64,000 nucleotides of DNA from Ostreococcus lucimarinus (lineage: Eukaryota). The translations under genes were made by a program, and so were the position numbers. Of the stretch, positions 18,945-60,708 are shown piece after piece. The notes under the pieces are model-generated. The model was not told the origin of the DNA and did not search any database. It worked only from the letters and a program-made list of their open reading frames with translations. How positions within the stretch are numbered: the stretch's first letter is position 1; every line of letters begins with the position of its first letter. The stretch lies in NCBI GenBank assembly GCA_000092065.1, contig CP000596.1. The stretch is one strand, 5' to 3'.

Positions 18945-19928
18945 TCACTCGTCGTCGTCGTCGTCGTCGTCGTCGTCCATGAACTCGGCAAACTCGCCGA
19001 GATCCTCCGCGGGCGCGGCGGCGGGCGCGGGCGCCTCGACGCCGAAGGCGACGGCGTCGCGCGCGTCGGCGAGCGCGCTCGGCTCGATCGCCGTCTTGGG
19101 CGCGCGCGCGCGCGCACCGGCGGTCTTTCTCGCCTCGGCCGCGCGTTCGAGCTCGATCGAGCTCGCGTCGACCGCTTTCGGCGGTCCGATGTCCCAGTTA
19201 TCGTTCAACAAATTCATCTCCGTGGGCACGTGAATACCGGGGCGATTGGAGAGTTTGGGCAACGGATGCCTGTTCACCACCGCCGCCATCGCGTGCGCGT
19301 CCGCCAAACTCGGCGGTTCGATGAACTGCCGCATTAATATCGCCTTGGCTCCTATTTTCACATCCTCCGCGTCGATCGTTCCTCGCCCCGCGTGTCTCGC
19401 CGCGCACGCGCTCTCCTCCAGCGCCTCGCTCGCGTACCGGTGCATGAACTCCATCCCTTGCGAGATGACCTTACGATCGACGTCCGTCACGCCCTGCGCG
19501 GATCGAATCAGTTCGCGCGTCGTCGTCAGTCCTTCCTTCGCGCGTTCGTCGTCCTCGCGCGTCGCGTCGGTCGCGTCGCGCGTCTCTCGCACCATCTCTC
19601 GCAGGATCTCTCGCGCCGCCGCCGCGTCTCTCGGCGCGCGTCGTTTCCCTCGTCCCTCGTCCTCGTCCTCGTTCGTCTCCAACGCTCGCGCGTCGTCGTC
19701 TTCGCGCACGCGCGCGCCCTCTCGCGCGCTTTTCTCCTCGTCCTCGTCCTCGTCGTCGTCGCCCTCGAGCGTCTCGCGCGCCTCGCGTCGCTTCTTCGCC
19801 TCCGCGGCGAGTCGAATGGCTTTCTTTTGTTCGGGCGTCAGCCCGCTGTTCACCATCGCCGCGACCGAGGGGAGTCGATCGCGTCGTTTCTTCGCCGACG
19901 CGCTCGGCGCCTTGCGCTTCGGCGCCAT
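18945..19928 (-). CDS. TAF9: Histone-fold protein, TAF9-like (TFIID subunit)
   Basis: 327 aa. Histone fold RKVISQGMEFMHRYASEALEESACAARHAGRGTIDAEDVKIGAKAI aligns with TAF9 [42 protein letters not shown]. Conserved NRHPLPKL...RPGIHVP box. Poly-Asp C-terminus, as in TAF9. Confidence 0.55.
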   Translation of the reverse strand: MAPKRKAPSASAKKRRDRLPSVAAMVNSGLTPEQKKAIRLAAEAKKRREARETLEGDDDEDEDEEKSAREGARVREDDDARALETNEDEDEGRGKRRAPRDAAAAREILREMVRETRDATDATREDDERAKEGLTTTRELIRSAQGVTDVDRKVISQGMEFMHRYASEALEESACAARHAGRGTIDAEDVKIGAKAILMRQFIEPPSLADAHAMAAVVNRHPLPKLSNRPGIHVPTEMNLLNDNWDIGPPKAVDASSIELERAAEARKTAGARARAPKTAIEPSALADARDAVAFGVEAPAPAAAPAEDLGEFAEFMDDDDDDDDDE

Positions 19929-57246: not shown

Positions 57247-58906
57247 ATGACGCGCGATGACGCCGACGGGGGCGCGCGGGATGATTTATACGACGCGCTC
57301 GGCGTCGCGCGGGACGCGACGAAGACGGAGGTGCGCGCGAGACGACGCGAGGACGACGCGACGAGGACGATGGATGCGTTTCGATGACGACCGCGTGGAT
57401 AGGGGAGGGGCGACGACGACGACTGACGGCGAGGCGCGACGACGGCGCGACGACGGCGCGGCGTAGGTGCGACGGGCGTATCGAAATTTGATCACGCGCG
57501 CGCATCCCGATAAGGGCGGAGACGCGGTGACGTTCGCGAGGATCCAACGCGCGTACGACGTGCTGAGCGACGACGCGAAGCGCGCGTCGTACGACGAGAC
57601 TGGGACGTTTGAAAAGACGGTCGAAGAAGAATTGCTCGATGAATTCGGTGGAGGGGTGTTTCGCGATAAGATGAAGGAGGAGGAAGCGCGCAAGGAGTCT
57701 CTGGCCGAGGCGCTCGTGAAGACGGAGAAGGAGAAGGGGTCGCACACCGCCGGATTCGAAGCGTGGCTCCGAGCGCGCGGACCGGATTCGAACAAGACGA
57801 TCGGGGTCGAAGACATGATCGATCGATTCGGGGTGAACAAAGGTTCGTACGACGAAGTGGTGCTACCGAAGATTCGTGCGTACCAGGCGAGCGTCACAGC
57901 GGCGAACGCGATTAAATTGGGATCGGCGGCGATTCCTCCCACGCTCGAGTGGGGCGAGGTGCTCGTCAACGTGCGCGTCGCGCCGATTAATCCCGCCGAT
58001 ATCGACGCCAAGACGCTCGCTTCGCGCGCGAAATTCCCTTTCGTCGCTGGATCCGATGGTGTCGCCACCGTGGTGAAAGTCGGCGCGGGCGTGAAATCTC
58101 TCAACGAAGGCGATTGGGTGCTGCCGTACAAAGCCGAGATGGGCACGTGGCGCTCGCTCGCGGTGTGGAAGGAGAAGGACCTAATCAAGCTTCCTTCGGA
58201 CATTTTACCCATGGAATACGCGGCGATGATGCGTGAAATGTGCGTCGCGTACCGTTTACTGGAAGACTTCGGAAGCTTGAAACCGGGAGACGCCGTGGTG
58301 CTCAACGCCGCGACGTCCACCGTCGGTCAGTGCGTCGTGCAACTGTGCGCCATGCTCAAGCTTCGCGCCGTCGCCGTCGTGCGCTCGCGGAAAGATTTCG
58401 ACAAGACGGCGGCGTGGTTGAAATCACTCGGCGCTTCGGAGGTGTTGAAAGATGAAGGCTCGATCGCGACCGAGCTCACGTCGCGAAACTTGTTCGCCAA
58501 GCCGAGACTGGCGCTCGACGCCGTCGGCGGCGCCTCGGCGGTGCGTCTCGCCGAATCCCTCCAACCCGGTTGTCCGCTCATCGTCTACGGCAACATGAGC
58601 GGTCGCGCGGCGACGTTCCCATGGCACGCCTGGACGCAATCCGCACTCATCGTTCGCGGGTTCTCGTTGCGCCAATGGATGACTGAAAACAAGAAAAAGG
58701 TGCCCAAGATGATGGAGACGCTCGGCAAGCTCGCGCGCGCCGACAAACTCGCGATTCAGTACACCGACTACGAACTCTCGAGCGAGTTCGAGGAGGCGCT
58801 CGAACACGCGCGCGAGGACGATCGATGCACCAAAGTACTGTTACGCGTGAACGATATCGGGACGACGTACGACAGCGCCGAAAACGCCGCCTCGCCGACG
58901 GCGTGA
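57247..58906 (+). CDS. J-domain fused to a mitochondrial-type trans-2-enoyl-CoA reductase (MECR/ETR1, MDR superfamily); exons 57247..57330 and 57467..58906
   Basis: Exon 1 encodes MTRDDADGGARDDLYDALGVARDATKTE. Phase-0 GTGCGC donor. Exon 2 continues the J-domain (VRRAYRNLITRAHPDKGGD...YDETG), has an acidic linker of about 75 aa, then a MECR-like enoyl reductase (VNVRVAPINPADID, GDWVLPYKAEMGTWRSLAV, LNAATSTVGQCVVQLCAMLKLRAVAVVRSR). 507 aa. Confidence 0.75.
57331..57466 (+). other. Intron in the J-domain region of the DnaJ-MECR gene (136 nt)
   Basis: Donor GTGCGC. ACTGAC at 57422-57427, 39 nt upstream of the TAG acceptor. Confidence 0.7.
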
Positions 58907-59131
58907 GCGGTCCCGCGACGGGCGTCTCGACTCGGGCGACGGCGACCGCGCGGGCGAGACGAGACGAGACTATTCAGGGACGAAGACTACACGAATAAAT
59001 GCACGAAACTGTAATGATAATATTTCATCCTCAGTTCCTAAACTGCGGCGACCTATCGCGTCGCCTCTTCAAAGCGCGTACGTACCGAGCGTCGACGCTC
59101 GATGGCGTCGTCCTCGCTTCGCGGCGCGCGT

Positions 59132-59857
59132 TTAGTAGAGTTCTTCCTCCATGTGCGTCTTGACCGTGCAGTCCGACGTCGGGTACGCGACGCACGTGAG
59201 CACGAAGCCGTTACCCATTTGGTCGTCGTCCAAGAAAGATTGGTCGGATTGGTCGATGGAACCAGCCTGCGCGCGATCGTCTCGTCAGTCTCGTCATCCA
59301 GAAACGTCCCATCGTCGGTTCGCGACTCGTCGAGAGTCCCTCGCGGGCGAGTGACGTCAACGTACCGTGACCTTACCCGCGCACGACGAGCATGCGCCCG
59401 CGCGGCACGAGTACGGCAAGTCGATGCCGGCTTCCTGCGCGCGTCGCAAAAGAAATCACCCCTCCGTCAGTCTCGCGCCCTCGCGACGCCCGCGCGTTCG
59501 CGCGCGACGCGCCCGACGCGCATCGCGTCGATCGCCCGATCGTTGGGCGGCGCCGCGTCAGCGTCGCGCGACGCGATTCGCCCCCGTTCCCGCGCGCGCG
59601 ACGCCGCGCGCGACGCCGCGCGCGTCGCGACCCGACGATTAAAAATTCGCTCGAGCGTTTCGCGCACTCACCTCAGCGGCGTCGAGGATGTACGTGTCGT
59701 CCGCGCACTCGATCGCTTGCGCCCCCTCCGGGGTTTCGAGCGTGACCTGGAAGCGCGCGATCGTCGATCGGCGCGCGACGGCGGCGGAGGATCGGCGCGC
59801 GCCCGCGAAGGACGCGACGGGGGCGGCGGTGACGGACATCTTCGTGACGGCGGACAT
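59132..59857 (-). CDS. PETF: Plant-type [2Fe-2S] ferredoxin with transit peptide; three exons: 59672..59857, 59366..59434 and 59132..59266
   Basis: Exon 1 encodes [62 protein letters not shown], donor GTGAGT. Exon 2 encodes [23 protein letters not shown], donor GTACGT. Exon 3 encodes [44 protein letters not shown], then a stop. 129 aa. All four Fe-S cysteines are present. Confidence 0.85.
59267..59365 (-). other. Ferredoxin intron 2 (99 nt)
   Basis: GTACGT donor. gACTGAC about 17 nt upstream of the CAG acceptor. Confidence 0.8.
59435..59671 (-). other. Ferredoxin intron 1 (237 nt)
   Basis: GTGAGT donor. agACTGAC 34 nt upstream of the CAG acceptor. Confidence 0.8.
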
Positions 59858-60139
59858 TGTGTCTGTGTGTTACTGCGTGGAGTAGTGTCGACGCGTCGTC
59901 GGCGAACGAGCGATCGACGCGACGCGATCGATCGAGGTCGGTCGATCCCCCTAACCTGTTGATTCGTCGAGTCAGCACTCGTCGACGCGCGCCGATCGAA
60001 AAAACCGTCCTCGCGTCGATCGACCGCGCGCGCATCGTCGGTCGCCGTCGAACCTCGCGCCGTCGATCGCGCGCGCGCGCGTCGATCGATCGATCGATCG
60101 ATCGATCGCGCGCGCCCGCACTTCGCGCCGACGGCGACC

Positions 60140-60562
60140 ATGCGCGCGATGTCGACGACGACGACGACGACGACGCGCGCGATGACGTCGCGCGCGTCGC
60201 GACGCCGACCGACGACGCGACGTCCGACGCGCGCGTACGCGCCGCGCGCGCGATCGAGCGACGACGACGACGACGCGACGGCGAACGAATCGTCGACGTC
60301 GGCGACCGAGCCCAAGCTCGACCCGTTCGGGTTCGGGGCGCGACGGCAGGACGCGCCGGACGAGATCCGCCCGGGATTCGACACCGCGGAGGGGGGGAAG
60401 GTGGGACCGGTGGGGACGTTTTTCATCTCCGCGCTGCTGATCGCGCTGTTCGGGGGGTCGTTTTTCTTCACGAGCGTGCCGCGGGGGAGCGTGGAGGAGC
60501 TCGCGGCGAGGCAGTTGGCGGACGATCCGAACGCGCCGACGCAGAGCTTCGCGAGACGGTGA
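60140..60562 (+). CDS. Hypothetical small single-pass membrane protein with plastid-transit-like N-terminus
   Basis: 140 aa. Real ATG. poly-Thr/Arg N-terminus. TM helix GPVGTFFISALLIALFGGSFFF. No family recognised. Confidence 0.35.
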   Translation: MRAMSTTTTTTTRAMTSRASRRRPTTRRPTRAYAPRARSSDDDDDATANESSTSATEPKLDPFGFGARRQDAPDEIRPGFDTAEGGKVGPVGTFFISALLIALFGGSFFFTSVPRGSVEELAARQLADDPNAPTQSFARR

Positions 60563-60708
60563 GGCGGTGGGGGGTGTGAGGGTGTTGGTATTTTTACGGT
60601 GGGCGTCGCGCGGGGAAGGGTAGATTGGTTGGTTGTCAAAACACGCGCGCTCGCGCTAAACTACGTAAATCTCTACGACGCGACGCGACGCGACGCTTCT
60701 AACTAAGA

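Follow-up and report, generated by a model that had tools for sequence, protein, structure and literature searches.

A three-exon plant-type ferredoxin gene of Ostreococcus lucimarinus, expressed and already in the public annotation

The ferredoxin gene and its transcript

The window analysed here is a stretch of 64,000 nucleotides from contig CP000596.1 of the Ostreococcus lucimarinus assembly GCA_000092065.1, and all positions below are counted within it unless stated otherwise. Reading the minus strand of 58900-60100 and joining three exons gives a coding sequence of 186 + 69 + 135 = 390 nt, which stays in frame and specifies 129 amino acids followed by TAA, in segments of 62, 23 and 44 residues. 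Both exon joins are in phase 0, and the GC3 of the joined coding sequence is 86%. We regard the locus as almost certainly the nuclear PetF gene of O. lucimarinus, encoding a chloroplast plant-type [2Fe-2S] ferredoxin (Fd), and none of our results spoke against this reading. Its features are as follows:

59858..59889, minus strand: 5′ UTR, about 30 nt, free of upstream ATG, placed by transcript contigs and sequence
59672..59857, minus strand: exon 1 coding sequence, 186 nt, codons 1-62, with a putative presequence of about 35 residues and the first 27 mature residues, ending ...ILDAAE
59435..59671, minus strand: intron 1, 237 nt, phase 0, GTGAGTGC...GCGCGCAG, donor GTGAGT, 73% GC
59466..59471, minus strand: branch-site motif ACTGAC of intron 1, in the context GAGACTGACGGA, with the branch A 32 nt from the intron end
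59366..59434, minus strand: exon 2, 69 nt, codons 63-85, with three of the four predicted cluster cysteines (C72, C77, C80)
59267..59365, minus strand: intron 2, 99 nt, phase 0, GTACGTTG...GCGCGCAG, donor GTACGT
59284..59289, minus strand: branch-site motif ACTGAC of intron 2, in the context GAGACTGACGAG, with the branch A 18 nt from the intron end
59132..59266, minus strand: exon 3 coding sequence, 135 nt including TAA, codons 86-129, with the predicted fourth ligand C110 and the C-terminal EEELY
59000..59131, minus strand: 3′ UTR, about 131 nt, with the poly(A) addition site at 59001/59000, from transcript contig L001

The initial annotation, made from the letters of the window, had placed three minus-strand exons at 59132-59857, and both its coordinates and its junction peptides proved exact on re-reading and joining: exon 1 closes on ...ILDAAE, and exon 3 opens with AGSIDQ and closes with EEELY. 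Its length of 69 nt for exon 2 also holds, and an exon of the same size is found in O. tauri and Micromonas pusilla.

The exact 129-aa sequence is present in the protein collection (P0001), where it is encoded as a single uninterrupted 390-nt ORF by two public contigs from environmental ENA assemblies, L001 (586 nt) and L002 (530 nt). Between 59889 and 59000, L001 equals the genome minus both introns without a single mismatch, and then runs into about 30 A that are not in the genome, which there reads ATTTATTCG (also given as TTTATTCG). L002 matches the spliced prediction from 59886 through both junctions, with two differences that both fall in the 3′ UTR. As the two contigs lack the introns and a non-templated poly(A) stretch is present, we infer that they derive from spliced and polyadenylated mRNA. 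Together they place the 5′ end near 59889. The initial annotation had named the lack of a transcript across the three exons as evidence that would speak against the gene; the spliced, polyadenylated transcript spans all three. The record name of L001 furthermore states a coverage of 399.9, which is consistent with an abundant mRNA.

A look into the annotation of the source genome, proposed together with the gene, found it there: the annotation of O. lucimarinus CCE9901 lists it as XP_001421955.1 (ABP00249.1; UniProt A4S8V9; P0006, the best named match), under the record name 'predicted protein' and the UniRef name 'Ferredoxin'. The novelty implied by the initial annotation is thus overstated, as the gene is already in the public annotation. 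XP_001421955.1 is the same gene without the N-terminal MSAVTK of our reading; its 123 aa begin at Met7 and show 100% identity with residues 7-129 of our product. From Ostreococcus sp. 'lucimarinus', an MMETSP transcript yields a product of 129 aa with 98% identity.

It is conceivable, though in our view unlikely, that translation starts at this second in-frame Met (Met7, window position 59839), as in the RefSeq model. Met7 is the start used by the reference annotation, the O. tauri N-terminus likewise has internal Met residues (MSAMNMS), and the mature protein is identical with either start. On the other hand, both transcript contigs reach about 30 nt upstream of 59857 without an ATG, which leaves Met1 as the first AUG for a scanning ribosome, and a protein of 129 aa starting MSA... 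is also given by the O. tauri model and by the gene calls from MMETSP and ENA. As Met1 is both the first AUG of the mRNA and the start of the O. tauri and transcriptome models, we consider it the more likely start, and suggest a small correction of the reference model, from 123 aa to 129 aa beginning at Met1. What this analysis adds to the known gene is this likely N-terminal extension of 6 aa, together with explicit UTR and poly(A) coordinates. Otherwise its significance is small, the gene, its product and its intron signals being textbook or published for O. lucimarinus.

Splice signals and the age of the introns

Both introns end in GCGCGCAG (CGCAG), and each carries one ACTGAC, which lies inside GAGACTGACG; the longer form GACTGACG occurs in both, at 59472-59465 and 59290-59283. 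The donors GTGAGT and GTACGT and the 3′ ends of the form ACTGAC...CAG, from which the joins had originally been read, are all present, and the latter are the known pattern of branch site plus acceptor. For O. lucimarinus introns that are confirmed by ESTs and lie outside chromosome 2, ACTGAC is present in 87% and GACTGACG in 66.5%, the donor consensus is GTGCGTG, the preferred acceptor is CGCAG, and the distance from branch site to AG has a broad peak at about 20-35 nt (Irimia and Roy, 2008; PMC2483917). Table 3 of that paper, as extracted, gives intron counts for each chromosome that clash with the percentages and look swapped; these were left unused. The Fd donors, read as GTGAGTG and GTACGTT, come close to the consensus without matching it exactly, and the 18 nt from branch site to AG in intron 2 is just below the published peak. 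Both introns have GT...AG ends, an ACTGAC branch site and a CGCAG acceptor, and their removal is confirmed by the transcripts. They are typical of the genome, that is, canonical spliceosomal introns of the non-chromosome-2 kind with slightly off-consensus donors.

The motif GACTGACG is found at 11 sites in the whole window versus 5.2 expected, and 11 was reached in 1 of 100 shuffles. Three of the 11 lie in introns established here (two in the Fd gene and one in the neighbouring DnaJ-ADH gene, described below); the other eight, at 19524, 20294, 24172, 24679, 37136, 43214, 47012 and 47794, may mark further introns.

For four relatives we retrieved the ferredoxin locus from the genome and derived its exon structure by an exact fit to the protein of the same species:

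O. tauri: exons of 186, 69 and 135 nt; introns of 244 and 207 nt, at the same two phase-0 positions
M. pusilla: exons of 204, 69, 117 and 18 nt; introns of 230, 198 and 185 nt, at both of these positions and, in addition, before EEELY
Chlamydomonas schloesseri PetF: a single intron of 215 nt, between DAAE and EAG, which is the position of intron 1
Pycnococcus: a single intron of 549 nt, elsewhere than either intron here

The position of intron 1 is thus common to O. lucimarinus, O. tauri, M. pusilla and C. schloesseri PetF, while that of intron 2 is common to O. tauri and M. pusilla and absent from Chlamydomonas and Pycnococcus. These shared positions indicate that intron 1 is old among chlorophytes, and that intron 2 and the 69-nt exon are common to these Mamiellales. 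For the same reason we rejected the idea that intron 1 is a repeated element of the 'introner' type, as an intron that occupies one and the same position in O. tauri, Micromonas and Chlamydomonas is likely to be old. Families of repeated 'introner elements' have reportedly been described for M. pusilla CCMP1545. In that strain the ferredoxin gene has the extra 185-nt phase-0 intron (L004 3819-4003), situated between HM and EEELY, directly upstream of the final five codons; neither Ostreococcus species has it, nor do Chlamydomonas and Pycnococcus.

The two introns are retained in an otherwise intron-poor genome and in a very highly expressed gene, and one could speculate that they are kept for a reason, be it intron-mediated enhancement or a regulatory element in the CG-rich block of intron 1. 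This block aligns between O. lucimarinus and O. tauri, but it is of low complexity (CG repeats) and the alignment could be noise; we consider such a role decidedly improbable. A search of 58800-60300 against Rfam at a permissive E-value, looking for a snoRNA or other RNA, gave no match inside the ferredoxin gene, introns included. Eleven weak Rfam matches, all far below the gathering score, fall in the low-complexity sequence at 60011-60220.

The product and the open reading frames that cover it

The initial annotation had called the product a plant-type [2Fe-2S] ferredoxin of 129 aa, and this is borne out. Pfam PF00111 (Fer2) matches it with 84.4 bits against a cut-off of 21 (E 5.4e-24, profile positions 6-77 of 77), and NCBIfam TIGR02008 (fdx_plant) with 165.6 bits against a cut-off of 81.15 (E 1.6e-49, profile positions 2-97 of 97), so that both family cut-offs are exceeded across the full domain. 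When searched against PDB sequences, the product aligns with the Chlamydomonas chloroplast ferredoxin 7wzn_G (E 1.5e-51) without a gap through the joins at 62/63 and 85/86, and dozens of further plant, algal and cyanobacterial ferredoxins are among the matches. The mature part is identical to Chlamydomonas PetF at 76 of 94 residues (81%). A failure to align over the full length, which had been put forward as a possible refutation, was thus not seen: the product aligns full length to PetF. The cluster ligand motif C72-X4-C77-X2-C80-X29-C110 is intact (CRAGACSSC...LTC), its four cysteines lining up with the ligands in the Chlamydomonas ferredoxin of known structure. Judged by its sequence, the 129-aa product is not a chance assembly of exons.

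Residues 36-129 align with 1-94 of 2n0s_B and with 2-95 of 6kum_A. As mature algal Fd chains, including those of Chlamydomonas, begin opposite residue 36, homology supports the presequence of about 35 aa proposed in the initial annotation. This N-terminal extension is rich in Ala, Arg and Ser, free of acidic residues and poorly conserved between species. Poor conservation between species is usual for transit peptides.

A comparison of O. lucimarinus with O. tauri over codons 36-129 shows 4 differing residues and a nucleotide identity of 94%, the mature codons comprising 77 identical ones, 13 with synonymous and 4 with non-synonymous differences. The presequence and the introns have diverged between the two species, except for the splice signals and ACTGAC. 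Conserved mature exons next to diverged introns and presequence mean that purifying selection acts in exactly the ferredoxin frame.

The gene is transcribed from about 59889 on the minus strand, two phase-0 introns of the U2 type are removed by way of a GT donor, a GACTGACG branch site and a CGCAG acceptor, and the mRNA receives its poly(A) tail at about 59000. For the further route to function we rely on homology to the PetF family. The 129-aa precursor is predicted to be imported post-translationally into the chloroplast and to lose its presequence of about 35 aa, leaving a mature protein of about 94 aa that probably binds one [2Fe-2S] cluster through C72, C77, C80 and C110. As a photosynthetic PetF it would carry single electrons from PSI, on the PsaC/D/E side, to FNR and to other ferredoxin-dependent enzymes; nitrite and sulfite reductases, glutamate synthase (GOGAT), ferredoxin-thioredoxin reductase (FTR) and similar enzymes are candidate acceptors.

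The assignment to the photosynthetic, FDX1/PetF-like isoform is suggested by the PDB scores, together with the high transcript coverage. It has to be weighed against the view that the protein, though a plant-type ferredoxin, is a minor or heterotrophic-type isoform for nitrite or sulfite reduction, like Chlamydomonas FDX2 or a root-type Fd. Green algae carry several Fer2 paralogs, the physiological partner is not fixed by sequence alone, and the PDB matches include Fd2 and Fd3 isoforms with E-values from 1e-36 to 1e-45. However, Chlamydomonas Fd1/PetF chains are the top PDB matches with 170-176 bits, the FDX2-type apoferredoxin 4itk_A reaching 126.9 bits, and the identity of the mature part to PetF is high, as is the stated coverage of the transcript assembly. 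Furthermore, O. tauri and Micromonas have the gene in the orthologous position with a conserved structure, and there it is annotated as 'ferredoxin, chloroplast precursor'. A minor isoform therefore seems very unlikely to us, and we favor the photosynthetic one.

The list of open reading frames, made with a threshold of 20 aa, contains six entries over the locus:

59639-59857, minus strand: 72 aa, with the true ATG, all of exon 1 and 10 read-through codons
59357-59449, minus strand: 30 aa, spanning exon 2
59132-59233, minus strand: 33 aa, spanning part of exon 3
59102-59962, plus strand: 286 aa, Arg-rich
59668-60639, minus strand: 323 aa, Arg-rich, in another frame
59673-60035, minus strand: 120 aa, Arg-rich, in another frame

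The initial annotation had dismissed the conspicuous ORFs here as Arg-rich junk, and rightly so: they are Arg-rich, and a Pfam scan of the 286-, 323- and 120-aa ORFs gave nothing significant, the best match being DUF7673 with E 0.043, below the cut-off. That the real gene should be one of the two longest ORFs over the locus, the 286-aa or the 323-aa one, with the ferredoxin as a by-product, has next to no chance, given that neither has a Pfam match at E ≤ 0.1, that a low-complexity composition like theirs is expected by chance at 62-65% GC, that the substitutions between O. lucimarinus and O. tauri follow the ferredoxin frame (13 synonymous, 4 non-synonymous) and that the spliced transcripts have the sense of the ferredoxin gene.

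Two stronger statements about the ORF list hold in part. That no listed ORF corresponds to the gene is true of exons 2 and 3, which appear only in ORFs of 30 and 33 aa, but not of exon 1, since the 72-aa ORF has the true ATG and all of that exon. Likewise, the statement that six-frame ORF calling fails completely in this genome is right for exons 2 and 3 at this locus and wrong for exon 1, and as a claim about the genome it is overstated, because the window has 58 ORFs of at least 250 aa and the published annotation of O. lucimarinus has only 2148 predicted introns genome-wide (PMC2483917). The GC content is 59-68% across the window, and no tRNAs were found in it. We point out that the locus is a case in which careful reading of the sequence alone recovers a gene with introns and an internal exon of only 69 nt, although the genome is GC-rich and spurious Arg-rich ORFs dominate the list.

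Neighbouring genes and comparison with known ferredoxins

The order of genes around the ferredoxin gene, with a small divergent gene upstream and a convergent DnaJ-ADH gene downstream, is kept in O. tauri and, to some extent, in M. pusilla. The convergent neighbour, at 57247-58906 on the plus strand, is a fusion gene of DnaJ with ADH_N/ADH_zinc_N whose intron was missed by ORF calling:

57247-57330, plus strand: exon 1, encoding MTRDDADGGARDDLYDALGVARDATKTE, the start of the J domain
57331-57466, plus strand: intron, 136 nt, with an GTGCGCGC donor, GACTGACG at 57421-57428 and a TAG acceptor
57467-58906, plus strand: exon 2; the joined product has 507 aa

For this gene the ORF list holds only a 479-aa ORF starting at GTG. 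O. tauri has an ortholog of 489 aa in the same place. The Fd poly(A) site (about 59000) lies only about 94 nt from the DnaJ-ADH stop codon (58906), and the 3′ UTRs of the two genes probably abut or overlap.

On the other side, a 140-aa ORF at 60140-60562 on the plus strand diverges from the ferredoxin gene, its ATG lying about 250 nt from the Fd transcript start; the sequence upstream of the ferredoxin gene at 59990-60100 is low-complexity (CGAT)n / (GC)n. The ORF has a Thr/Arg-rich N-terminus and one hydrophobic stretch (GTFFISALLIALFGGSFFFTS), and gave no Pfam match. Its exact sequence is found in public metagenome gene calls as a 'hypothetical protein' in a cluster of 49 members, and the same position is taken by a 133-aa gene in O. 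tauri and a 197-aa gene in M. pusilla, both without domains. Its product may be a small, conserved membrane protein targeted to an organelle, and a bidirectional promoter may serve both this gene and PetF.

In conclusion, the three-exon ferredoxin gene of O. lucimarinus is real, expressed, ordinary and already known. The O. tauri ferredoxin (P0009, '2Fe-2S ferredoxin, iron-sulphur binding site', CAID01000017.2) is also 129 aa long and has identical exon sizes, ACTGAC branch sites (with the intron 1 motif conserved) and the same flanking genes. Its introns, on the other hand, are 244 and 207 nt long versus 237 and 99 nt here, its presequence has diverged, and the overall protein identity is 79%. 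The M. pusilla CCMP1545 'ferredoxin, chloroplast precursor' (P0011) is 76% identical, keeps the 69-nt exon and has an ADH-family neighbour downstream, but its presequence is 6 aa longer than that of O. lucimarinus. Chlamydomonas reinhardtii PetF/FDX1 (7wzn_G, 2mh7, 6kum, 2n0s) agrees with it in the four Cys ligands and in the C-terminus, whereas the gene of the close relative C. schloesseri lacks an intron between KVT and AG, the position of intron 2, and has a presequence unrelated in sequence to that of O. lucimarinus.
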